This document shows, in pieces, positions 355 through 14,581 of a DNA stretch of 20,767 bases. The translations under genes and the position numbers were made by a program. Source of the DNA: a virus (Duplodnaviria > Heunggongvirae > Uroviricota > Caudoviricetes); the IMG/VR virus record IMGVR_UViG_2547132272_000014, one strand, 5' to 3'. Numbering within the stretch: position 1 is the first letter of the stretch; the number at the start of each line of letters is the position of its first letter. The notes below the pieces were generated by a model. The model did not search any database and was not told where the DNA came from. It saw only the letters and a list, made by a program, of their open reading frames with translations.

Positions 355-630
355 ATGAAAACTGGAACTAAGCTCTTAGTTGGTGCGTTAGCTTTTGTTG
401 TCACAAACGTCTATGCCGCTGAATTGATGACTAAAGCGGAATTTGAAAAGGTTGAATCGCAATATGAAAAAATAGGTGATATTTCAACAAGTAATGAAAT
501 GTCGACTGCAGATGCAAAAGAAGATTTAATCAAAAAAGCGGATGAAAAAGGTGCTGATGTGTTGGTACTGACCTCCGGTCAGACTGACAATAAGATCCAC
601 GGCACGGCAAATATTTATAAGAAGAAGTAA
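355..630 (+). CDS. yahO: YahO-like small periplasmic protein (DUF1471 / BhsA-McbA family), 91 aa
   Basis: ORF track 301..630 trimmed to ATG 355, which has GGAG at 343-346; N-terminus [23 protein letters not shown] is a typical Sec signal peptide; sequence recognised from memory as E. coli YahO; position upstream of prpR fits the known gene order. Confidence 0.7.
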
Positions 631-702
631 TTCTGAAGCCATGTAAATATGCCCGATGTGCACGTCTATCGGTGAATGCAATATATTGAAATTCATGATT
701 TT

Positions 703-736
703 GTAGGCCGGATAGGGGGTCACACCGCATCCGGCA
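703..736. repeat. REP (repetitive extragenic palindromic) element between yahO and prpR
   Basis: gtaggccggatagggggtcacaccgcatccggca matches the enterobacterial REP consensus (GCCGGATA...GCATCCGGC) with internal dyad symmetry. Confidence 0.5.
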
Positions 737-738
737 AT

Positions 739-2325
739 TTAATTTTTCAGCCGCCGCCAGAACGTCGTTCGGCTGATGCCTAAATAATTCGCCGCTGCTG
801 TTTTATCACCATTAAATTTCTCCAGTGCCTGTTGGGGTGTCAGCAAGGGAGAGGCGGTAATTTTCGCCGACTCGTGGGCTAATTCCGGCAGTAGCCGTTG
901 CAAAAACTGCGGCGTTAAATCCGGCGTCGGTTCCACACTTAAAAATAGCGCCAGTCGCTCCATCATATTGCGGAGTTCACGAATATTTCCCGGCCACTCA
1001 TAGTGCAATAAAACCACCTGGCAGGTATTTAACCCCTCGCGTAACGCAGCAGAAAATGGGGCGGAGAGCGCCGCCAGAGACACTTTTAAAAAGCTTTCCG
1101 CCAACGGCAGAATATCCGCACCCCGCTCGCGCAGTGGCGGCAATTGCAGACGTAAAATACTCAGTCGATAAAACAGATCACGGCGAAAACGTCCTTGCTG
1201 CATATCCTCTTCCAGATTGCAGTGGGTGGCGCTGATGACCCGCACATTTACCGGAACAGGCTGATGTCCGCCGACGCGAGTGACCTCTTTTTCTTCCAGC
1301 ACCCGCAGCAGGCGAGTCTGCAAAGGCAGCGGCATTTCGCCAATTTCATCAAGAAACAGCGTGCCGCCGTGGGCAATTTCGAACAGCCCGGCGCGACCTC
1401 CGCGTCGCGAGCCGGTAAATGCCCCTTCCTCATAGCCAAATAGCTCCGCTTCCAGCAATGATTCGGCAATCGCTCCGCAGTTAACGGCAACAAACGGATG
1501 TGATTTTTTACCGTGGCGAGCGTCATGACAGGCAAAGTATTCCCGATGTATCGCCTGAGCCGCCAGCTCTTTACCGGTTCCCGTTTCTCCCTGAATCAGC
1601 ACCGCCGCACTGGATCGGGCATAGAGCAAAATGGTTTGCCGCACTTGTTCCATCTGTGGCGATTGACCAAGCATATCGCTCAAAACGTAACGAGTACGCA
1701 GGGCGTTGCGGGTAGTGTTCTGGGCGTTATGCCTTAGAGACATGCGTGTCATATCCAGCGCATCGCTGAACGCCTGGCGCACGGTGGCAGCGGAATAGAT
1801 AAAAATTCCGGTCATTCCGGCTTCTTCTGCCAGATCGGTAATCAGCCCGGCACCGACCACGGCTTCGGTGCCGCTAGCTTTTAGCTCGTTAATCTGCCCG
1901 CGTGCGTCTTCTTCGGTGATGTAACTACGTTGGTCGAGACGCAGATTAAAGGTTTTTTGAAACGCCACCAGTGCCGGAATGGTTTCCTGATAAGTAACGA
2001 CGCCAATCGATGAGGTAAGTTTTCCGGCTTTTGCCAGCGCCTGTAACACATCAAAGCCGCTCGGTTTAATCAAAATAACGGGCACTGACAGGCGGCTTTT
2101 CAGGTACGCGCCGTTAGAGCCAGCGGCGATGATAGCGTCGCAGCGTTCACTTGCCAGTTTTTTGCGGATGTAGGCCACCGCTTTTTCAAAGCCAAGCTGG
2201 ATAGGCGTTATGTTCGCCAGGTGATTAAACTCAAGGCTGATATCGCGAAACAGTTCGAACAAGCGCGTCACTGATACCGTCCAAAAAATGGGTTTATCGT
2301 CGTTCAGCCGTGGTGGATGTGCCAT
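739..2325 (-). CDS. prpR: Propionate catabolism operon regulator PrpR, sigma54-dependent enhancer-binding protein, 528 aa
   Basis: ORF track 739..2394 trimmed to ATG at 2325 (protein [12 protein letters not shown]...); AAA+ sigma54-interaction signatures GETGTGKE (Walker A) and GAFTG, C-terminal HTH; divergent from prpB. Confidence 0.85.
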
Positions 2326-2501
2326 AGCACCCCAAAGAATTAAGAAACCGAATATTGGGTTTAGTCTTGTTTCATAATTGTTGCAATGAAACACGGTGAA
2401 ACATTGCCTGAAACGTTAACTGAAACGCATATTTGCAGATTAAGTAAGAGTGTTTTTGTTAACAAATTGAAATGTATTGGTTATTTTGAGTTTATCAATT
2501 G

Positions 2502-2517
2502 TGGCATAGCCCTTGCT
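2502..2517 (+). promoter_or_regulatory. sigma54 (RpoN) -24/-12 promoter for prpB-prpC
   Basis: TGGCATAGCCCTTGCT fits TGGCAC-N5-TTGCW (GG at 2503-2504, GC at 2515-2516); lies about 50 bp upstream of the prpB start and next to the divergent sigma54 activator gene prpR. Confidence 0.7.
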
Positions 2518-2563
2518 TTGTGTTTATCAACGAAAATAACAAGTTGATAACAAAGGATGGGCT

Positions 2564-3454
2564 ATGTCTCTACACTCTCCAGGTAAAGCGTTTCGCGCCG
2601 CACTCTCCAAAGAAACTCCGTTGCAAATTGTTGGCACCATTAACGCCAACCATGCGTTGTTGGCGCAGCGTGCCGGATATCAGGCGATTTATCTCTCCGG
2701 TGGTGGCGTGGCGGCAGGTTCGCTGGGGCTACCCGATCTCGGTATTTCTACCCTTGATGATGTGCTGACCGATATTCGGCGTATCACCGACGTTTGCTCG
2801 CTGCCGCTGCTGGTTGATGCCGATATCGGCTTTGGCTCTTCGGCCTTTAACGTGGCGCGTACTGTGAAATCGATGATTAAAGCCGGTGCGGCAGGATTGC
2901 ATATTGAAGATCAGATCGGCGCGAAACGCTGCGGTCATCGTCCGAACAAAGCGATCGTCTCGAAAGAGGAGATGGTTGATCGGATCCGCGCGGCGGTGGA
3001 TGCGAAAACCGATCCTGATTTTGTGATCATGGCGCGCACCGATGCGCTGGCAGTGGAAGGTCTGGACGGCGCGATCGAACGCGCGCGAGCCTATGTTGAA
3101 GCCGGTGCCGAGATGCTGTTCCCGGAGGCGATTACTGAACTCGCCATGTACCGCCAGTTTGCCGATGCGGTGCAGGTGCCAATCCTCGCCAACATTACCG
3201 AATTTGGCGCCACGCCCCTGTTCACCACCGATGAATTACGCAGCGCCCATGTCGCAATGGCGCTGTACCCGCTTTCAGCATTCCGCGCCATGAACCGCGC
3301 CGCTGAACATGTCTACAACATCCTGCGCCAGGAAGGCACGCAGAAAAGCGTGATCGACACCATGCAGACCCGTAACGAGTTGTACGAAAGCATCAACTAC
3401 TACCAGTACGAAGAGAAGCTCGACGACCTGTTTGCCCGTAGCCAGGCGAAATAA
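2564..3454 (+). CDS. prpB: 2-methylisocitrate lyase, 296 aa
   Basis: ORF 2564..3454 with AAGGATGG upstream; isocitrate lyase/PEP mutase family signatures (KRCGH catalytic loop, EDQ motif); recognised as E. coli PrpB. Confidence 0.9.
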
Positions 3455-3487
3455 ACAAACGTCTGGTGGTTGTATTCGACAACCGAT

Positions 3488-3574
3488 GCCTGATGCGCCG
3501 CTGACGCGACTTATCAGGCCTACGAGGTGTACTGAACTGTAGGTCGGATAAGACGCATGGCGTCGCATCCGACA
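3488..3574. repeat. Pair of inverted REP elements (BIME-like) in the prpB-prpC spacer
   Basis: gcctgatgcgccgctgacgcgacttatcaggcctac (3488-3523) and gtaggtcggataagacgcatggcgtcgcatccgaca (3538-3574) are REP-consensus sequences in opposite orientation. Confidence 0.5.
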
Positions 3575-3615
3575 ACAATCTCGACCCTACAAATGATAAC
3601 AATGACGAGGACAAC

Positions 3616-4650
3616 ATGAGCGACACAACGATCCTGCAAAACAGTACCCATGTCATTAAACCAAAAAAATCTGTGGCACTTTCTGGCGTTCCGGCGGGTA
3701 ACACCGCGCTTTGTACCGTAGGCAAAAGCGGCAACGACCTGCACTATCGCGGCTACGATATTCTCGATCTCGCAGAACATTGCGAATTTGAAGAAGTGGC
3801 GCATCTGCTGATCCACGGCAAACTGCCGACCCGTGACGAACTCGCCGCTTACAAAACGAAACTGAAAGCCCTGCGCGGTTTACCGGCTAACGTGCGTACC
3901 GTGCTGGAGGCTTTACCTGCGGCGTCGCACCCGATGGATGTTATGCGCACCGGCGTTTCCGCGCTCGGCTGCACGCTGCCGGAAAAAGAGGGGCACACCG
4001 TCTCCGGCGCGCGGGATATTGCCGACAAACTGTTGGCGTCGCTGAGTTCGATTCTTCTCTACTGGTATCACTACAGCCACAACGGCGAACGCATCCAGCC
4101 GGAAACCGATGACGACTCTATCGGCGGTCACTTCCTGCATCTGCTGCATGGTGAAAAGCCGTCGCAAAGTTGGGAAAAGGCGATGCAAATTTCGCTGGTG
4201 CTGTACGCCGAGCATGAGTTTAACGCCTCCACCTTTACCAGCCGGGTGATTGCGGGCACCGGCTCTGATATGTATTCAGCCATTATCGGCGCGATTGGTG
4301 CACTGCGCGGGCCGAAGCACGGCGGGGCGAATGAAGTGTCACTGGAGATCCAGCAACGCTACGAAACGCCGGACGAAGCCGAAGCGGATATCCGCAAGCG
4401 CGTGGAAAACAAAGAAGTGGTGATTGGTTTTGGCCATCCGGTTTATACCATCGCCGACCCGCGCCATCAGGTGATCAAGCGTGTGGCGAAGCAGCTCTCG
4501 CAGGAAGGCGGCTCGCTGAAGATGTACAACATTGCCGATCGCCTGGAAACGGTGATGTGGGAGAGCAAAAAGATGTTCCCCAATCTCGACTGGTTCTCCG
4601 CTGTTTCCTACAACATGATGGGCGTTCCCACCGAGATTGTGGGGTGGTGA
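3616..4650 (+). pseudogene. prpC: 2-methylcitrate synthase prpC, 3'-truncated by prophage insertion
   Basis: Translation matches PrpC (citrate synthase family) through ...[13 protein letters not shown]. As I recall it, intact PrpC continues MFTPLFVIARVTGW... for about 45 more residues; here the frame reads IVGW-stop, encoded by the first bases of the prophage end. Chromosome/prophage junction is at 4637/4638. Confidence 0.75.
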
Positions 4651-4800
4651 TCAATTCTGGGCGGAGTTCGTGCAGCCTGGTAGAACCTGCAAGCCTTGTG
4701 TGGCGCGGGGTGTGGTGATTTAGTGTGATTCTGGGCGGATTTGTGAGAAATGACCAAAAACGCTTTTTTTTGCGCTTTTTTCTGGGCGCTTTTGATCTGG
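4645..4800 (+). repeat. Left-end array of three direct repeats, candidate transposase-binding sites (analogous to Mu L1-L3)
   Basis: TTCTGGGCGG at 4655-4664 and 4729-4738, and TTCTGGGCGC at 4780-4789; the first two sit in longer matching contexts GGTGAT...ATTCTGGGCGGAnTTnGTG. Offsets of about 18, 92 and 143 bp from the terminus resemble the Mu attL layout. Confidence 0.5.
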
Positions 4801-4949: not shown

Positions 4950-5600
4950 TTATGCTGATTTCTTGTTTACAGGCTTCGTTTCTTGCTCCGGCGTGGCAAC
5001 GGTCTGACCACCTGGCGACCTAGCTCGTATATGAGATTCGATGCGGCGCAAAATCTCTTTGTCAATTTCTTCGTTACCATCTAATGCCATACATATGGCG
5101 TCTTTTAGCGATTCCCTGATGTTCAGGCTTCTGATGGCATTCTCCTGTTCGTCTAGGTCGTTGTAGGCCTGTTTCGCTTGCCTGGTGGGTTGTTGTAGGC
5201 GTTCCAGGACTCCTTTGATACCAATACAACAAAGCATATCAATAAGACGCTCTCTATCTTCTGGAGCGGCTCGTCTTAGTATTTCGTCAACAATACTTGT
5301 ATCGGGGCGGTTAACGTCTTCTGTAGTCACCCTTGATTTTTCTACCATTGGAACACTTCTGTTCTCACCGTAGACCAGCCATTCCAGTGATACATTCTCT
5401 AATTTTGCTATTGTAGCGACCACATTTAGGCCAGGTGTCGTGCCTTTTTCAAAGTAGTTATTTATGGTCGAGTACGGTAATCCCCAGTCTGAGGTGGCTT
5501 TACGCAGGCTCCTGGTGCCAATCAGTTGTTTGATTCTGTCTTGAATGCTTTCTTTTCTATCCTGAGAAAAGGAAAAATCATCAGCGATTTGTTTACTCAT
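4950..5600 (-). CDS. Prophage repressor candidate, N-terminal HTH (XRE/CI-like), 216 aa
   Basis: Minus-strand ORF divergent from ner; AGGA upstream of ATG 5600 on the minus strand; N-terminal segment LRKATSDWGLPYSTINNYFEKGTTPGLNVVATIAKLENVSLEWLVYGE looks like a CI/C2-type helix-turn-helix; no obvious S24 peptidase motif in the C-terminal half. Confidence 0.6.
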   Translation of the reverse strand: MSKQIADDFSFSQDRKESIQDRIKQLIGTRSLRKATSDWGLPYSTINNYFEKGTTPGLNVVATIAKLENVSLEWLVYGENRSVPMVEKSRVTTEDVNRPDTSIVDEILRRAAPEDRERLIDMLCCIGIKGVLERLQQPTRQAKQAYNDLDEQENAIRSLNIRESLKDAICMALDGNEEIDKEILRRIESHIRARSPGGQTVATPEQETKPVNKKSA

Positions 5601-5648
5601 TTTCTTTCCTTCTAACGTGTTGATTTACATGTGCTTTCTTCAAAAAGA

Positions 5649-5752
5649 CTTTCTTTTCACCAAAGAAAGAAAAGAAAGCTTGTAATTTTCTATTTGTGGA
5701 TCAATACTTATATCCGAAGGGATAACACGGCGGTGTTATCCGCACGGATAAC
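5649..5752. promoter_or_regulatory. Divergent repressor/ner control region with candidate operators
   Basis: Inverted repeat CTTTCTTTTC (5649-5658) / GAAAAGAAAG (5669-5678); palindrome GATAACAC-GGCG-GTGTTATC (5721-5740) plus a third GGATAAC half-site at 5746-5752; located between divergent regulatory genes. Confidence 0.4.
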
Positions 5753-5768
5753 TTTTAAGGGTAACCTA

Positions 5769-6005
5769 ATGATGGTTAGAAATGAAGTAATGAACAAAGA
5801 CTGGCACCGCGAGTACATCGTTGCCGCTGTGCACACCAAAGGTTTTACATTGCGTGAACTTTCTGAACGCGCTGGTCTAAAAAAAGACTCTTTAAAAAAT
5901 GCACTGTATCGCTCATGCCCTAAATATGAACGCATCATAGCCGATGCTATTGGTGTGGAACCTGCGGAGATCTGGCCAAGCCGGTATGCCAGTAAGGCGG
6001 CGTAA
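5769..6005 (+). CDS. ner: Ner-like DNA-binding protein (Mu Ner / Nlp family), 78 aa
   Basis: ORF track 5631..6005 trimmed to ATG 5769 (AAGGG at 5757-5761); sequence KDWHREYIVAAVHTKGFTLRELSERAGL...IIADAIGVEPAEIWPSRY resembles Mu Ner (…DWHRADVIAGLKKRKLSLSALSRQFG…IWPSRY, from memory). Confidence 0.75.
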   Translation: MMVRNEVMNKDWHREYIVAAVHTKGFTLRELSERAGLKKDSLKNALYRSCPKYERIIADAIGVEPAEIWPSRYASKAA

Positions 6006-8047
6006 TGTTTTATTCAGCCAATGAGCTGGCCGGTCTTCCTGGTTTGCCCGGTACAGTTCAGGGGGTGCGCTGGACGCTCAATCGGATCACAGAGACGCAC
6101 CCAGAATGGAAGCGCAAGCGCGAAGGCACCAAAGCATTCGAGTATCACATCGACTGCCTGCCCGCTGAAGCGCAGAAAGTTTTACGTAAGCGCCTGACTC
6201 ATCAGGTCCTGGAAGATGCACAACTGCCCGCCGTAGTTGAGCAGAAAGCAGTTAAAAACGTCGCCGTTCGCGATGAACTGGAGGTGATGGTCAAATGCCC
6301 GGAGCTGGCATTACGCGAAGTCCAGTCACTGACCGACAAGCAAAAGGCCATCGCTGATGCGCGGATATTGCTGGCTACTGAAGTGCATAAGCTGCGCGAG
6401 TATGCCGGAATGACCAGGAAGGCCGCTTTAAAGCACATCGTTGATGGTGTGCGCATGGGGGCGTTACCTGACCGCATTATCGAAGCAGCGAATACTGCAA
6501 ATGCACGTCAGGGAAAGCGAACCGGTGTCAGCACCGGCAGCCTGGATAGCTGGTACTCCAGCTGGGTGATGGCGCGCGGTGATGCCAATCAGTTACTGGC
6601 GTTACTGGCTCCCGGTCATCATAAGGGAACACCGTGGGAGCAGGTCTGGTGGTTGAGCGATTTCTTTATGTTCTATCGCTCATGGAAGCGCCCGACTGTT
6701 GAATATGCGTATCGTGAGTTTTCAGCCTGGTGGCATGAAAAACACGCGAATGATGCGGGAATGCTGGCGGCACTGCCTTCAGTTCACGCAGTAAGACGGG
6801 TGTTAAGCAGCGTCCCGGTGATTGTTAAAGAGCGTTTCCGCTCCACCGGTTCAGCCTGGCGTTCGCTCAATCCCTTTGTGCGGCGCGACTGGACATCATT
6901 ACCGGTTAATGCGGTATGGGTCGGGGATGGTCACTGTATGAAAATGACCGCGTTTAACCCCCTGACCGGCAATATTTTCCGGCCAGAAGTGACGCTGGTT
7001 ATGGATGCGGGGCAACGCTTTGTTGTGGGCTGGTCACTGTCCCTGTCGGAGAACGTGATAGCTGTTGCTGATGCGTTGCGTTACGGCATGGCACAGCACG
7101 GGATACCGCTGATTTATTACTCCGATAACGGGGGCGGCGAAAAAAACCGGGTGCTTGATGCCGATATTACCGGGATTCTGCCCCGTCTGGGTGTGGAACA
7201 TCACACGGGGATACCAGGTAACCCGCAGGGGCGCGGGGTGATTGAACGGGCAAACAAAGGAATACCCAAAGACGTGGCTCTGAGTTTCCAGACGTACTGC
7301 GCAAGGGATGCAGACAAGGAAACCGTAATGATGCAGCAACGGATTATGCAGTCAGCCATTAAGGCCACCCACAAAGGGAAAGAGCTGACAAAACGGCAGG
7401 TTAAGGCGAGGGATGAAATCCCTACCTTTGAGCAACTGATGGCAGCCATAGAGCTGGAGGTCAGACGCTATAACAACCGGCCACACAGCAGCCTTCCTCG
7501 CAAAGAGGATGGCGAATATTACAGCCCGGCAGCGTATCGCCGGAAACTGATAAAAGAGCAAAAGGCTGAAATCGACATGCTGTCGCCGGAAGAACTGCAT
7601 GAAATGTTCAGACCGGAAGTGACGCGCAAAACATTTCGCGGGGAAATTCAGTTATTCAACAATATTTATTACTCATATGAGCTGGCCGCAGAGCACGGGA
7701 ATGAAGTCAGGGTCAGTTACGATATTCATGATGCAAACAGCGTCATTGTCCGGCGGGCTGATGGCTCTTATATCTGCGATGCCATCTGGAACGGTAACAA
7801 GGTTGATGCCTTCGCTAAACCAGTTATCGAGCAAAAACTGGAGAAACGCGTCAGGGGCCGCATTGCACGGGCCACGCAGAAAATCGAAGAAGCTAAACGC
7901 GAGCTTACCCCGGCCATTACGCAGAAGCCTGACTTTAATCTGGGATATGGACTGGAGCGCCCGGAGAAAAAGGAAAAAGAAGAACTTTATTTATTCGCAT
8001 CTGAACGCGAACGCAATTTAAAGAAAAACGGCACAAACAACCGTTAA
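6005..8047 (+). CDS. MuA-like DDE transposase, 680 aa
   Basis: Start overlaps the ner stop (TAATG); N-terminus ANELAGLPGLP resembles the MuA N-terminus (ANLPGLPKT); candidate DDE residues in WVGDGH, YYSDNGG and GRGVIER; size and position match Mu A. Confidence 0.85.
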   Translation: MFYSANELAGLPGLPGTVQGVRWTLNRITETHPEWKRKREGTKAFEYHIDCLPAEAQKVLRKRLTHQVLEDAQLPAVVEQKAVKNVAVRDELEVMVKCPELALREVQSLTDKQKAIADARILLATEVHKLREYAGMTRKAALKHIVDGVRMGALPDRIIEAANTANARQGKRTGVSTGSLDSWYSSWVMARGDANQLLALLAPGHHKGTPWEQVWWLSDFFMFYRSWKRPTVEYAYREFSAWWHEKHANDAGMLAALPSVHAVRRVLSSVPVIVKERFRSTGSAWRSLNPFVRRDWTSLPVNAVWVGDGHCMKMTAFNPLTGNIFRPEVTLVMDAGQRFVVGWSLSLSENVIAVADALRYGMAQHGIPLIYYSDNGGGEKNRVLDADITGILPRLGVEHHTGIPGNPQGRGVIERANKGIPKDVALSFQTYCARDADKETVMMQQRIMQSAIKATHKGKELTKRQVKARDEIPTFEQLMAAIELEVRRYNNRPHSSLPRKEDGEYYSPAAYRRKLIKEQKAEIDMLSPEELHEMFRPEVTRKTFRGEIQLFNNIYYSYELAAEHGNEVRVSYDIHDANSVIVRRADGSYICDAIWNGNKVDAFAKPVIEQKLEKRVRGRIARATQKIEEAKRELTPAITQKPDFNLGYGLERPEKKEKEELYLFASERERNLKKNGTNNR

Positions 8048-8065: not shown

Positions 8066-8959
8066 ATGAGTTTAATTACGCAATTAAATGACGTAATGGC
8101 CCGTCGCGGCTATACGCAAACCCACGTCGCCCGTGCTATTGGTCGTAGCAGCGCCGTTATCAACCAGTATTTACAGGGTAAATATCAGGGCGATATGGCT
8201 GATATTGAAGAACGCATTTTCGCCTTTGTGACCCGTGAGCGGGAAAAGGAAAACAGCCGCCGTATTAAAGCGAAATTTGTTGCCACCGGTATGGCTGCCA
8301 AAGGACTGGAGGTGTTGGCCTATGCTCACCTGGAATGTGAAATCTGCGTACTGTATGGCGCGGCAGGTCTTGGCAAAACAATGATTCTGCGTGAATACGC
8401 CGCCAGAAACCGGGATGCGGTCCTGATTGAAGCCGACCCGGGCTATACAGCCAGAACACTGCTTGAGGAGCTGTGCCGCCAGCTGGGGGTAAAAGTTCGC
8501 GGCAATATCCACGAACTGATTGATGCATGTGTGCGAGAACTGCGTGATTCCGGTCGCCTGCTGATGGTGGACGAGGCTGAACTGCTCCCCTATCGCGCAC
8601 TGGAGGTTCTGCGCCGTCTGCATGACAAAGCGGGTATCGGGATTGTCCTGGCGGGTATGCCACGCCTTCTGATTAACCTCAAGGGACGTCGCGGTGAGTT
8701 CGCCCAGTTATACAGCCGTGTGGCGCTGGCGCTTAACCTGGGCGATACGCTGGCGCAGGAAGATTTTAACCAGATAGCCACCGGGCTGATGCCGGAAGCA
8801 GCAGAACCGGAAATCAGCGAGGCGCTTTACGTACGCTCGCTGGGTAATGCCCGCCGCCTCTTCAAACTGGCGCGCGGTGTGTACCGGATTTGTGATATCA
8901 GCGATGCACCGGTCAGTGTGCAGGCCATTGATAAATTCGCAGAAATGTTAATTCACTGA
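8066..8959 (+). CDS. MuB-like AAA+ ATPase (transposition target DNA activator), 297 aa
   Basis: N-terminal HTH-like segment, Walker A GAAGLGKT, Walker B-like LLMVDEAE; immediately downstream of the transposase as in Mu. Confidence 0.75.
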   Translation: MSLITQLNDVMARRGYTQTHVARAIGRSSAVINQYLQGKYQGDMADIEERIFAFVTREREKENSRRIKAKFVATGMAAKGLEVLAYAHLECEICVLYGAAGLGKTMILREYAARNRDAVLIEADPGYTARTLLEELCRQLGVKVRGNIHELIDACVRELRDSGRLLMVDEAELLPYRALEVLRRLHDKAGIGIVLAGMPRLLINLKGRRGEFAQLYSRVALALNLGDTLAQEDFNQIATGLMPEAAEPEISEALYVRSLGNARRLFKLARGVYRICDISDAPVSVQAIDKFAEMLIH

Positions 8960-9198
8960 TGGAGAACAAGACGATGGACAAGCAGACCATTAACGCCGTC
9001 CGTTCCCGTGCCCGTGTGGCCATCCACACCACTGGCGGTCGTGTAACGGGGCAGCATCACCGTTTACCTGTGGTTTATGCCTGCCCGCCCGTGGGTGGTC
9101 CTGTATGGCCGGTAACGGAAATCATCCAGACATTCAGCGGCCTGCGCCGCGTGGTGAAAACGTCCTGTATCGACGGCTGCACCGTCGTATGGCAGTAA
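8959..9198 (+). CDS. Hypothetical early protein, 79 aa (alternative start ATG 8974)
   Basis: ORF overlapping the B stop (TGATG); GGAG at 8961-8964 would serve ATG 8974; Cys-containing; no family recognised. Confidence 0.35.
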   Translation: MENKTMDKQTINAVRSRARVAIHTTGGRVTGQHHRLPVVYACPPVGGPVWPVTEIIQTFSGLRRVVKTSCIDGCTVVWQ

Positions 9199-9213
9199 AA
9201 CGAGGAACTGAAA

Positions 9214-9405
9214 ATGTCATTAGAGCTTGAGTTAACCTTCAGCCTGGACAGGCCTGGTAAACCGGAGAAAGCTGTCGCGACGTATCAGTTGCCGCCTGAT
9301 GTCACGGGAGAGCAGGTTTCCGACATTATCATAAAAACTCACTGTTTTATGAACGAAATTATTTTTAAATCGTTTGATTTCAAAGGAGAAAAACATGGCG
9401 GTTAA
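9214..9405 (+). CDS. Hypothetical early protein, 63 aa
   Basis: ATG 9214 preceded by GAGG; the 3' third of the ORF runs into AT-rich DNA, so the C-terminus may be fortuitous. Confidence 0.3.
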   Translation: MSLELELTFSLDRPGKPEKAVATYQLPPDVTGEQVSDIIIKTHCFMNEIIFKSFDFKGEKHGG

Positions 9406-9610
9406 GTTAGAAGTAATTATCTATACCAATGAAAAAGGCAGGGTTTTAACCCAGATTACAGGAAGTTATTTGAAGGATGGCGCTTCTGAAAGGGAGTTTC
9501 AGGTGGCAACAGGATTACATGATGTTATCAAGGAAGCACTGAGAAATGACTACAACGGCGTGAATATTTTTTCTGAAAACGCTGCGCCCTGCGCACATAA
9601 CACAAATTAA
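9395..9610 (+). CDS. Hypothetical protein encoded in an AT-rich block, 71 aa
   Basis: ORF track 9374..9610 (TTG) trimmed to ATG 9395 with GGAG at 9385-9388; about 37% GC by eye versus about 55% in flanking phage genes. Confidence 0.35.
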   Translation: MAVKLEVIIYTNEKGRVLTQITGSYLKDGASEREFQVATGLHDVIKEALRNDYNGVNIFSENAAPCAHNTN

Positions 9611-9639
9611 TCTGTAAATATCACTGAGGTAATTTAATT

Positions 9640-10284
9640 ATGACGACTGAAAATAAAGTTAAGCAATACACGAAAACTCAGGCACCTGAAGGTTACTGGG
9701 TGGATGCCCGTGGCGTAATGACACCTGAAAGCCTTATCAAAGATATTGACCGCGACCGCGAGCAGCTGGTCGGTGAGCTGGTGGAGATGGTGATTGCTGC
9801 CTCCGCCTCACTGCGTGAACTGAAACTGCGTGCGTTTGGTGATATTCAGGCGTTTATTGACCTGTCGGCGGAGAAATACGGCGCTGTGAAAGGCGGTAAA
9901 AAAGGGAATATCACGCTTTACAGCTTTGACGGGCGTTACAAGATTCAGCGCGCCATGCAGGACCGTATCGCGCTTGATGAACGCATTCAGACCGCGAAGG
10001 CGCTGATTGATGACTGTCTGGCTGACTGGACGGAAGGCGCACGCCCTGAAATTAAGGCCATCATCAGTGAGGCATTCAGCACGGACAAGGAAGGCAACAT
10101 CAACACCGGTCGCGTTCTGGCTCTGCGTCGTCTCGATATTACGGAGGAACGCTGGGATAACGCCATGAAACTGATTGGTGAAGCCGTCCAGGTGGTTGGT
10201 AGCAGAAGCTATATCCGCGTGTATGAGCGCGTCGGTGATTCTGATGAATACCGCGCAATCCCGCTTGATATTGCAGGGGTTTAA
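9640..10284 (+). CDS. Conserved Mu-like phage early protein (DUF3164-like, from memory), 214 aa
   Basis: Clean ORF with codon-like composition in the early region; length and general sequence character recalled as the DUF3164 family seen in Mu-like prophages; function unknown. Confidence 0.45.
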   Translation: MTTENKVKQYTKTQAPEGYWVDARGVMTPESLIKDIDRDREQLVGELVEMVIAASASLRELKLRAFGDIQAFIDLSAEKYGAVKGGKKGNITLYSFDGRYKIQRAMQDRIALDERIQTAKALIDDCLADWTEGARPEIKAIISEAFSTDKEGNINTGRVLALRRLDITEERWDNAMKLIGEAVQVVGSRSYIRVYERVGDSDEYRAIPLDIAGV

Positions 10285-10285
10285 C

Positions 10286-10519
10286 ATGCATCAGGATATC
10301 AAAGAGTACAGAGCCAGAAATAGTTGCGCGGCGTATTCGCTGGGCGCGTCCAGAGCAGAACAACGCGGCGATTATGCCGAGGCTGAAAAGCTGTGGCGTA
10401 AGGCAGCGCAAAGCCCGTGTAGCACCCTGCGCCGCATCTGGGCAGAACACCGGGCACAGTTCTGTGCCAATGCTCACCAGAAAGGATGGAAGCCGATTCA
10501 TGAACGCGAAACGCTTTAA
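10286..10519 (+). CDS. Small hypothetical protein, 77 aa, possible small helical regulator
   Basis: ORF track 10175..10519 trimmed to ATG 10286 (overlaps the upstream stop, TAACATG); segment AEAEKLWRKAAQ...RRIW weakly recalls PerC/ANR-type small regulators; unverified. Confidence 0.35.
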   Translation: MHQDIKEYRARNSCAAYSLGASRAEQRGDYAEAEKLWRKAAQSPCSTLRRIWAEHRAQFCANAHQKGWKPIHERETL

Positions 10520-10691
10520 TCAGTTATATCCGCCTGGTACTCGTTTCATGCACATTGCACATCAGGCGGTGCGTGGTGGTCGGGTGGTAAAAACTGTTGC
10601 ACCGGCCAGAGATTTTAAATGTGGTTGTGTGGTTGAAATTAATGTCGAGCCTTATTTCGTAAAAGTCGAAACACTGAAAGCAGCGCATTAA
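10500..10691 (+). CDS. Small hypothetical protein, 63 aa
   Basis: ORF track 10374..10691 trimmed to ATG 10500; overlaps the upstream gene by 20 nt; start uncertain (alternative ATG 10470). Confidence 0.3.
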   Translation: MNAKRFNQLYPPGTRFMHIAHQAVRGGRVVKTVAPARDFKCGCVVEINVEPYFVKVETLKAAH

Positions 10692-10771
10692 TTTAATTTG
10701 TTTTTAATTGTTATTTAAAACAGGCGTAAACCCGCCGGGGCTGGCTTACGCCTGAATCTGAGGGATTCATT

Positions 10772-11488
10772 ATGGAAAATAAAAGCAAATACATTGCCAA
10801 AATCAAAAAACTGTTACGCCTTGCCAGAGGAACATCAAGCCCGGAAGAAGCCGCTAACGCTATTGCAAAAGCCCAGGCTTATATGCGCCAGCATGGTATC
10901 AGCGAAAACGACGCGGAATTGTTCGACATTCAGGAAGCTGCCAGCGCGGGTGCGCCGAGTGATGCCAGTACGCCGCCGCGTTATATGCACATCCTGTGTG
11001 ACCTGGTATGTAAAGCCTTCGGTGTCGAGTGTTACATCTCAGGTGAATACCGGGCTTCTGGTTCACTCAAACGTTACGTTCGTTTTTATGGTCCTGACAG
11101 CCGCCCGGAAATTGCGGCATACGCGTTTGATGTGCTTTCCCGTCAGATGATGGCTGAACGTAAAAAATATCAGGATAAACACTGCAAACGTTGCGGCCCG
11201 TCCACGCGGGTAGCCCGTGGCGACCAGTTCTGCGAAGGCTGGGTCTTTGGTGTCCGTGATGTCATTGCGGTGTATGACGTCTCCCCGGAAGAAAAAAGTC
11301 GCCTTGAGCTTTACAGAAAGAACCTGCACAGCACGAAAGGGCTGCGCGACGGGGATATGCGCACAGCTAAAGCGTGCCGGGGTGCAGAGTTTGCCGCTAC
11401 TGCCGGTTTTATCGCCGGGAAAAACGCCAGGCTGCATCAGGGGGTTAATGGTCAGAGCAACAGACCACTGGCATTGGGGAGGGTGTAA
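10772..11488 (+). CDS. DUF2786-like protein with C-terminal Cys cluster, 238 aa
   Basis: ATG 10772 with GAGGGA at 10760-10765; N-terminus KIKKLLRLARGTSSPEEAANAIAKAQAYMRQHG matches the remembered DUF2786 N-terminal signature; HCKRCGPSTRVARGDQFCEGW suggests a metal-binding ribbon. Confidence 0.5.
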   Translation: MENKSKYIAKIKKLLRLARGTSSPEEAANAIAKAQAYMRQHGISENDAELFDIQEAASAGAPSDASTPPRYMHILCDLVCKAFGVECYISGEYRASGSLKRYVRFYGPDSRPEIAAYAFDVLSRQMMAERKKYQDKHCKRCGPSTRVARGDQFCEGWVFGVRDVIAVYDVSPEEKSRLELYRKNLHSTKGLRDGDMRTAKACRGAEFAATAGFIAGKNARLHQGVNGQSNRPLALGRV

Positions 11489-13842: not shown

Positions 13843-14209
13843 AGCCGGTCAGGCGTATCTGGGGTGGGATGATGCCCTTTATCGCCAGACGCTGGCCCGT
13901 CTGACCGGTAAAACCAGCACCACACGCTGCAATCTCGATGAACTGCGCATCATCCGGGAATACATGCACGAACAGGGATTTCCGCGCAAAGCGCCCGCCG
14001 GTAAAGGTCGCCGCCCCCGTGTTGCAATGAGCAGAAAATCGGTATTATCCAAAATTGAGGCGTTGCTGGCTGATGCCGGTCGTTCCTGGGCGTATGCGGA
14101 AGGACTGGCATCTCACATGTATAAGCAACATGTGATCGAATGGCTGACGGATGAACAGCTTTTTGGGGTGATGGTGGCGCTGGTTAAAGATTCAAGGAGA
14201 CGTAAATGA
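13814..14209 (+). CDS. GemA-like protein (Mu gp16 / DUF1018-like), 131 aa
   Basis: ORF track 13715..14209 trimmed to ATG 13814 with GAGGA at 13801-13805; N-terminus KKMIGAIKAGQAYLGWDDALYRQTLARLTGKTSTTRCNLDELRIIREYMHEQGF matches the remembered GemA-family pattern; lies just upstream of the Mor-family gene as gemA does in Mu. Confidence 0.55.
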   Translation: MLKKMIGAIKAGQAYLGWDDALYRQTLARLTGKTSTTRCNLDELRIIREYMHEQGFPRKAPAGKGRRPRVAMSRKSVLSKIEALLADAGRSWAYAEGLASHMYKQHVIEWLTDEQLFGVMVALVKDSRRRK

Positions 14210-14544
14210 AAAAACTGTTATTACTTATTCTGGCTTTATGTTTTACAGGGATATCCCATGCTTCTGATTCAGAGGAAGATTTGATCAAAAAAACATTACA
14301 GGGCGATTATCAGGCACAACGTAATCTGGCTTATTCATACATGAATGGCTGGGATGATATTTCAAAGGATATCATCAGAGGATGCGCTCTCAGGAAGGTT
14401 ATTCTCTTGACACAAGCCAAAGCTGACATTGGCGATTATGGAAATGAAGCCATAGATTGCCGAAAAGTGCATCCAACAGATAACCAGAAAGTATGGGAAT
14501 ATGTCAGAGGATACCTGGTGTTGATAAACGAGAATAAAAAATAA
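14206..14544 (+). CDS. AT-rich cargo gene encoding a secreted/periplasmic protein, 112 aa
   Basis: ATG overlapping the GemA-like stop (ATGA), AAGGAG at 14194-14199; signal peptide MKKLLLLILALCFTGISHA/SD; about 32-37% GC in the two 60-nt stretches I counted, versus about 55% in neighbours. Confidence 0.5.
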   Translation: MKKLLLLILALCFTGISHASDSEEDLIKKTLQGDYQAQRNLAYSYMNGWDDISKDIIRGCALRKVILLTQAKADIGDYGNEAIDCRKVHPTDNQKVWEYVRGYLVLINENKK

Positions 14545-14551
14545 TATGAAC

Positions 14552-14581
14552 AAAAACCTTCGCAGGCGCGGAGGTTTTTTA
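14552..14581 (+). terminator. Rho-independent terminator at the end of the early operon
   Basis: AAAAACCT ... AGGTTTTT inverted repeat around a GC-rich loop (tcgcaggcgcgg), followed by a T-run; directly after the stop at 14544. Confidence 0.55.

Follow-up and report, generated by a model that had tools for sequence, protein, structure and literature searches.

A variable small-gene slot before the DUF3164 gene in the early operon of a Mu-like prophage of Escherichia

Introduction

Does a run of small AT-rich genes in the early operon of a prophage mark recently acquired foreign DNA, or is it an old part of the operon? This question is raised by the virus record IMGVR_UViG_2547132272_000014, a stretch of 20,767 nucleotides (nt) which we call the window. 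Its prophage is of Mu-like type with a B3/BcepMu-type gene set, and at 9214-9610, within the early operon, two short genes named orf63 and orf71 are located between a Kil homolog and a gene encoding DUF3164. A preliminary description, made from the window alone, had taken this block for a recent acquisition with a recombination scar. We consider it probable that the block is instead a plastic slot of the early operon, with an optional orf63, an ancestral and fast-evolving orf71, and a low GC content that is intrinsic to the genes. The block and its borders were as follows.

8974-9198, plus strand: Kil homolog of 74 amino acids (aa), a conserved gene that bounds the variable slot on the left (phrog_2679, E 5.7e-35)
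9199-9213, plus strand: spacer with the orf63 ribosome-binding site (RBS) GAGGA at 9202-9206; left junction of the orf63 module in the alignment of relatives
9214-9405, plus strand: orf63, optional accessory gene of 63 aa (phrog_38867, E 4.3e-49)
9385-9388, plus strand: GGAG, RBS of orf71, read from the sequence, within the 3' end of orf63 and 6 nt before the ATG
9395-9610, plus strand: orf71, fast-evolving gene of 71 aa found in all relatives sampled, from ATG at 9395 to TAA at 9608-9610 (phrog_7438, E 2.5e-48)
9425-9604, plus strand: hypervariable core of orf71 (codons ~11-70), the only part in which allele groups differ
9611-9639, plus strand: conserved 29-nt spacer with the DUF3164 RBS GAGG at 9626-9629, from the sequence and the alignment of relatives
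9640-10284, plus strand: DUF3164 gene, which is conserved, bounds the slot on the right and always follows orf71-family genes (PF11363, E 4.6e-79; phrog_846)

Slot content in related prophages

The sample comprised 58 complete E. coli genomes with a closely related prophage. The content of the slot was classified by the length of the matched span, together with the annotated loci that were fetched, and three classes were obtained.

orf83, orf63 and orf71: 18 of 58 genomes
orf63 and orf71, as in the window: 3 of 58 genomes
orf71 alone: 37 of 58 genomes, one of them with an IS1 insertion too

orf71 was therefore found in 58 of the 58 E. coli relatives, orf63 in 21 and orf83, which is absent from the window, in 18. 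The same position was occupied by orf71 in Salmonella and Citrobacter relatives too, and the site of the slot was constant, with the order Kil homolog, slot and DUF3164 at each of 25 loci from Escherichia, Salmonella and Citrobacter. The GC content of the slot was 0.39-0.42 regardless of its genes, in all 12 loci first examined. Because orf71 is constant in position and composition across the relatives, it is not a recent insertion, and the view of the block as newly acquired does not hold for this gene, which has the same position and low GC in every one of the 58 relatives. The IS1 copy, an IS1A, was inside the small-gene slot of E. coli RM9088 (H97, NZ_CP042298.1 2086502-2087645).

Alignment with a locus lacking orf63 (L003) and with two loci bearing orf83 (L002 and L005) showed that the joints of the modules are short RBS-containing spacers between the genes. 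The orf63 module had its indel boundaries at the gene ends, ~9199 and ~9394. The orf71 allele group, the presence of orf63 and the mosaic patches of DUF3164 assorted independently. Only orf63 and orf83 act as optional cassettes; orf71 varies by allele and not by presence.

Base composition of the block

The GC content was 0.367 for 9330-9610 and 0.411 for 9214-9610, and that of the whole window was 0.517. In the flanks it was 0.544 for the MuB-like gene (8066-8959), 0.600 for the kil homolog and 0.526 for the DUF3164 gene. Among 281-bp segments taken over all of the window, just 1.7% were as AT-rich as 9330-9610. Five other stretches of the window were similar GC troughs (1-480, 2177-2424, 5317-5684, 10508-10652 and 14079-14401). 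The dip is real, and it is not singular. It extended to ~9680, slightly past the end given before (9610), with a GC content of 0.352 for 9320-9680.

Several points of the preliminary description were borne out by these data: a GC content of ~37% against ~55% in the flanks (measured as 0.367 versus 0.53-0.60), a 71-aa protein with its own GGAG RBS, and an upstream open reading frame (ORF) whose C-terminus runs into AT-rich DNA. In orf63 the GC content fell from 0.517 at 9214-9329 to 0.276 at 9330-9405, and this gene shares an 11-nt overlap with orf71. The GC contents at the first, second and third codon positions were 0.46, 0.35 and 0.40 in the orf71 of the window, and ~0.62-0.66, 0.40-0.41 and 0.56 in the MuB-like and DUF3164 genes. 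Therefore, both amino-acid composition and codon choice contribute to the low GC of orf71.

The scar proposed at the C-terminus of orf63 was not confirmed. Homologs of orf63 were found in Escherichia, Salmonella and Citrobacter only, and every relative with orf63 had the same DNA and the same frame in this part, which encodes a predicted helix (residues 32-53). The C-terminus was kept at the protein level in Salmonella, Citrobacter and E. albertii. In the 51-aa variants of orf63 in the databases, one extra T between 9316 and 9317 shifts the frame (+1) of otherwise identical DNA. Because the C-terminus is conserved and the indel boundaries are elsewhere, the drop in GC within orf63 does not mark a recombination junction.

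We therefore regard it as very unlikely that the block is recent foreign DNA, inserted by illegitimate recombination and leaving a scar in orf63. The atypical composition, the presence/absence polymorphism of orf63 and orf83 and the very narrow taxonomic range of orf63 would agree with such an insertion. However, it is largely refuted for orf71, which has its composition not only in the E. coli relatives but also in distant lineages, and the step at ~9330 is inside a conserved frame and matches no indel boundary in the relatives. There were also no flanking repeats, promoter or terminator at the block: repeats were short chance ones, and promoter- and terminator-like sites on the plus strand of 9199-9640 were not above the number expected from shuffled sequences.

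Variability of orf71

We searched the orf71 family with a word-indexed search of 5.8 billion proteins and with an exhaustive profile search of 1.84 billion representatives. The former gave 30 clusters, none of them from outside Escherichia and Salmonella salamae, and the latter gave nine matches. In the family alignment the first 11 residues were invariant and the C-terminal P-x-A-H-N-T-x was almost invariant, while identity in the centre ranged from 96% down to 44%. The sole indel was a whole codon, and a length of 70-71 aa was held down to 27% identity. At least one member, P0013, was a recombinant between two allele groups. Nucleotide diversity, calculated per 30 nt over 25 loci, followed the same pattern.

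9395-9424: 0.036
9425-9544: 0.25-0.35
9545-9604: 0.17-0.19
downstream of 9604: ~0.03 (backbone range 0.02-0.06)

Between allele groups, the divergence in codons 13-64 of orf71 was 0.58-0.73 at nonsynonymous sites (dN) and 1.0-1.25 at synonymous sites (dS). For the same genome pairs, kil had dN of 0-0.012 and dS of 0.02-0.16, and DUF3164 had dN of 0-0.03 and dS of 0.05-0.24. The ratio of the two rates (omega) and the number of nonsynonymous changes per codon were also counted on trees.

kil: omega 0.05, 0.15 changes per codon (mean nucleotide diversity 0.044)
DUF3164 gene: omega 0.08, 0.25 changes per codon
orf63: omega 0.16, 0.21 changes per codon
orf71: omega 0.43, 1.74 changes per codon

At the protein level orf71 evolves 7-12 times faster than its neighbours. 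The omega of its centre was 0.48, significantly lower than neutral (p 3e-6). Since omega is low and yet above that of the neighbours, orf71 does encode a protein, one that is constrained far less than theirs. Its allele classes are old, and recombination through the conserved ends moves them between near-identical backbones.

orf71 was frameshifted independently in two lysogens, E2348/69 (L006 1550-1805) and STEC346 (L004 2007-2239). The former is a reference strain of enteropathogenic E. coli (EPEC), in which the gene is an unannotated frameshifted pseudogene. Truncated members were also found in the database. On the basis of the independent frameshifts and the truncated members, orf71 appears dispensable for maintenance of the prophage.

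Three accounts of the diversity were tried and rejected. Diversification of the type driven by a diversity-generating retroelement (DGR) was ruled out by the lack of a template repeat: comparison of 9431-9590 with the whole window by blastn gave only chance matches of ≤25 nt, and no reverse transcriptase domain was found among the early genes examined. Gene-wide positive selection was rejected as omega was <1 in all partitions, the lone pairwise value of 1.47 coming from 12 changes. Co-evolution with DUF3164 was rejected because allele group was associated with neither DUF3164 nor kil variants (p 0.58 and 0.74). The DUF3164 gene is itself a mosaic (9665-9694 and 10115-10174), with patches at residues 13-16 (TQAP or NKVQ), 166-177 and 186/189, which assort independently of one another and of the orf71 allele group.

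The alleles of orf71 could also be kept by an arms race. Here orf71, and perhaps orf63, would be an anti-defence, superinfection-exclusion or host-takeover protein, whose alleles are held by diversifying or frequency-dependent selection and whose variable surface tracks a host or competitor target. We regard this as rather doubtful, although several data agree with it. The omega of orf71 is 5-9 times that of the neighbours, and a single species has two or three deep allele groups on near-identical backbones. Replacement hot-spots were found at codons 16-21 and 24-28, which fall on the hairpin tip and the strand 2-loop region of the predicted structure, and several codons had 4-6 nonsynonymous versus 0-1 synonymous changes. 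In the pair of the window and L010 the omega of the centre was 1.47. There are precedents in Tip and Aqs1, small early proteins of Pseudomonas Mu-like phages (as summarised in PMC12035536). On the other hand, gene-wide omega was significantly <1 within and between allele groups (0.33-0.48), and the sole value above 1, that of the centre in the pair of the window and L010, stands on 10 versus 2 changes. The very high dS between groups means that the divergence is old and imported, not rapid in place. Moreover, no likeness to known defence or anti-defence proteins was found by PADLOC or by fold, and the frameshifts in two lysogens do not fit well with such a role.

Ancestry of orf71 and its place before DUF3164

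Two distant homologs, P0048 and P0050 (27-30% identity), were found between a gene of 91-94 codons and DUF3164. Their prophages had MuA, MuB and DUF3164 proteins 47%, 57% and 72% identical with those of the window. Their stops overlapped the DUF3164 start by 11 nt, and their GC contents were 0.384 and 0.455 versus 0.54-0.56 in the flanks.

A wider synteny survey was carried out with DUF3164 as the anchor in species-representative genomes. Recognisable members of the orf71 family were identified in Photorhabdus, Xenorhabdus and Intestinirhabdus, and similar ORFs of 65-70 codons beginning with 'MA.K...VH' in Yersinia, Pectobacterium, Symbiopectobacterium and Klebsiella. Both kinds were directly upstream of DUF3164, mostly with an 11-nt overlap at its start, and the GC content of the orf71-like ORF was below that of DUF3164 at every such locus (0.39-0.48 vs 0.45-0.57). 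Metagenomic contigs also had orf71-like ORFs (65-71 aa) before DUF3164. No recognisable homolog was found in a Buttiauxella prophage or in the Serratia and Pasteurellaceae lineages.

Examples of the 11-nt stop/start overlap are L012 4206-4216 (AATGTCCACTGA) and L029 2492-2502; in the window such an overlap, 9395-9405, joins orf63 to orf71. In the Escherichia, Salmonella and Citrobacter lineage a conserved 29-nt spacer with GAGG replaces the overlap between orf71 and DUF3164. The orf71 of the window fits the traits of the family: 65-71 aa, an N-terminal strand of the MA[VI]K[LFI]E type, a predicted hairpin with a helix, and a place directly before DUF3164. These comparisons indicate that orf71 is ancestral and fixed in position: among the sampled lineages of related prophages, most have it directly in front of DUF3164. 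Its low GC is an old, lineage-wide trait of the family and not a sign of recent foreign origin.

Predicted structures and database searches

AlphaFold2 modelled orf71 with strands at residues 2-11 and 17-26, a helix at 32-52 and a disordered tail at 56-71, with a mean predicted local distance difference test score (pLDDT) of 66. The model of orf63 had strands at 4-11 and 18-25, a helix at 32-53 and a disordered tail at 57-63 (mean pLDDT 72). Both proteins are thus predicted as a beta-hairpin followed by one helix.

For these small genes, sequence searches of Pfam, PADLOC and PDB were without match, and PHROGs gave only families of unknown function, matched over the full length (for orf83, 35084 with E 1.1e-60). 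In PADLOC-DB, orf63, orf83, two alleles of orf71 and the genes beside them all lacked matches at E ≤0.1. Structure searches of PDB and BFVD with Foldseek gave nothing significant, and neither orf63 nor orf71 matched the Kil profiles (phrog_2679 and phrog_2743) at E ≤0.1. Among isolated phages, 50,697 records were compared by tblastn with orf71, orf63 and the distant homolog P0048, and none of them matched. The three genes are already catalogued as RefSeq hypotheticals, for example WP_000279305.1 and WP_000051130.1. The literature on DUF3164 consisted of passing mentions in four papers, without a reported function, and phrog_846 is a PHROG family without an assigned function.

The common predicted topology raises the possibility that orf83, orf63 and orf71 come from one small gene duplicated before DUF3164, with unequal recombination resizing the slot. 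We think that such tandem paralogs are possible but somewhat unlikely. orf63 and orf71 have an identical predicted topology in near-identical register, the N-termini are alike (MSVKLTIVF, MSLELELTF and MAVKLEVII), and the 11-nt stop/start overlap is found at the joint of orf63 and orf71 as well as at that of the orf71 homologs and DUF3164. The C-terminus of orf83 in Citrobacter, SEENKVH, is like that of the distant orf71 homologs, and the family hidden Markov model (HMM) gave an empirical p of 0.011-0.024 against orf83, with marginal values of 0.01-0.035 for a broader family HMM. However, hhalign gave a probability of 0.4% for orf71 with orf63, and of 12% and ~2% for orf71 with orf83. The family-HMM score of orf63 was no better than that of half of the shuffled decoys, and a beta-hairpin with a helix is simple and could arise independently. 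When paralogy was tried by sequence it was rejected: profiles gave no support for orf63 with orf71, and marginal support for orf83.

It is hardly credible that the block has no protein function at all, being decaying remnants or spacer, or AT-rich DNA that works as a cis-regulatory or RNA element. Frameshifted copies exist, no known domain was found, and nucleoid proteins can bind AT-rich DNA. Against this, ORF length and frame are held to 27% identity across genera, omega is significantly <1, and the lone indel of the alignment is a whole codon. The block also lacked Rfam matches at E ≤1 and notable repeats, and promoters and terminators were no more frequent than in shuffled sequences.

Prophage context

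The host flank yahO-prpR-prpB-prpC (376-4637) had ~91.5% identity to E. coli, and the match ended at 4637 inside prpC. Because of this identity and the position of the match end, the element is most likely a transposable Mu-like prophage located within prpC, and its host an Escherichia other than E. coli, as judged from sequence comparison. Imperfect direct repeats, GGTGAT..TTCTGGGCGGA.TT.GTG, were seen at ~4645-4677 and 4712-4746, and they resemble transposase-binding end repeats. The gene order was assigned by Pfam and PHROG searches, which gave the following genes beside those listed above.

4950-5600, minus strand: CI-type repressor
5631-6005, plus strand: Ner-like helix-turn-helix protein
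6005-8047, plus strand: MuA-type transposase
8066-8959, plus strand: MuB-like AAA ATPase
10286-10519, plus strand: ANR-family protein
10500-10691, plus strand: further ORF of 63 codons
10772-11488, plus strand: DUF2786/DUF7168 protein

This gene set agrees with the earlier view of small accessory-type genes in a Mu-like early operon, and the slot is recombinationally plastic. The block is at the counterpart position of the Mu semi-essential early region. The gene kil had been named before only as an analogy; a gene clearly homologous to that of Kil, the septation inhibitor of Mu, is present directly upstream at 8974-9198 (phrog_2679 is described as 'Kil protein for bacterial septation inhibition').

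A second AT-rich trough with a plastic slot was seen at 10500-10772, and GC was ~0.39-0.40 around 10508-10868. Between the 63-codon ORF and DUF2786 the relatives had variable genes: DUF7448, hypotheticals of 181 aa and ~130 aa, and small minus-strand ORFs. The trough at 5317-5684 is the divergent control region of the repressor and ner (GC minimum 0.335). Another, at 14079-14401, is in the middle of the window, with GC 0.377 around 14276-14556.

Proposed mechanism

We propose that a plastic slot with an optional orf63 and an ancestral orf71 would work as follows. The orf63 cassette would be gained or lost at the RBS-containing gene junctions, and deep alleles of orf71 would be swapped by homologous recombination via the conserved 5' and 3' ends. 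A composition rich in K, N, I, E and T, together with weak codon selection, would produce the low GC. The early promoter would drive both genes, on one early transcript with A, B and kil, and their products would be small cytoplasmic beta-beta-alpha proteins that bind other proteins. The invariant N-terminal strand and C-terminal tail of orf71 may make constant contacts, either by self-association or with a conserved phage partner, for which the DUF3164 product would be the first choice. Variation would be free at the hairpin tip, in strand 2 and on the helix surface, by drift or by tracking a variable target. Within this favoured reading, a partner of DUF3164 and an arms-race effector appear about equally likely.

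A more specific form can be given, which we consider unlikely enough to be offered as speculation. The orf71 family would be a hypervariable specificity subunit or modulator acting with DUF3164, or an anti-defence or exclusion factor, in which selection keeps the allele classes and cassettes are exchanged via the conserved ends. If this is true, it would open a way to learn what DUF3164, which is conserved in many transposable phages, does, and to study an arms-race locus in the Mu-like early operon.

The results mean that a GC valley in a prophage does not, alone, show that DNA was acquired recently: in this slot the gene that is ancestral and never absent is the AT-rich one, and the optional gene straddles the GC step. 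They also define a small protein family tied to DUF3164 by position, usually via an overlapping stop and start, and a compact, cassette-like allele system in E. coli prophages with conserved ends and a hypervariable core of ~180 nt. Provided that the variable core follows some target in host or phage, the locus would be a tractable entry to the early-operon accessory functions of enterobacterial Mu-like phages.

Comparison with known systems

The PHROG entries 7438, 38867 and 35084 carry no function, nor do they note the DUF3164 synteny, the structure of the alleles or the relatives found more widely in Enterobacterales. The semi-essential region of Mu includes 14 ORFs, mostly uncharacterised, on a long early transcript (PMC3325207, PMC3820752). 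With kil, gam, gemA and ~10 uncharacterised ORFs, it has the same operon place after A and B, with kil first, and it likewise has many small genes which are dispensable for growth and whose functions are unknown (PMC3325207, PMC3820752). Beyond Kil, the block has no sequence similarity to that region. To our knowledge, Mu has no DUF3164 gene.

Morons, the autonomous accessory units of lambdoid phages, have their own promoter and terminator. This was not found here, where the genes are translationally linked with an 11-nt overlap. Another trait of morons, absence from near-identical relatives combined with atypical composition, is shown by orf63 and not by orf71. Tip of phage D3112 and Aqs1 of DMS3 are small early proteins which inhibit PilB and LasR, respectively (as summarised in PMC12035536). 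As small early accessory proteins of transposable phages that bind host proteins, they might be functional analogs, and only functional ones, of orf63 and orf71.

The closest system is the regions of genomic plasticity in the Mu-like phages of Pseudomonas aeruginosa, where small accessory ORFs (34-100 codons) are present at fixed plastic sites of the left arm, some of them in GC valleys (PMC4378225, Cazares et al. 2014). The common traits are a fixed site among core genes, short ORFs that differ between relatives, and a deviation in GC. Those regions hold zero to several ORFs with mostly unknown functions and have no evident recombinase target at the junctions, like here (PMC4378225). The slot differs from them by its Escherichia host and its phage lineage with a B3/BcepMu-like gene set, and the sequences are unrelated. 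Variation in the presence of short ORFs, which is typical of the P. aeruginosa regions, is seen for orf63 and orf83 only. orf71 is not optional, being present in all relatives sampled, but hypervariable, and its low GC is old. The locus is of modest interest because of how the orf71 alleles are structured and how the gene is linked with DUF3164, and is otherwise an ordinary plasticity region.
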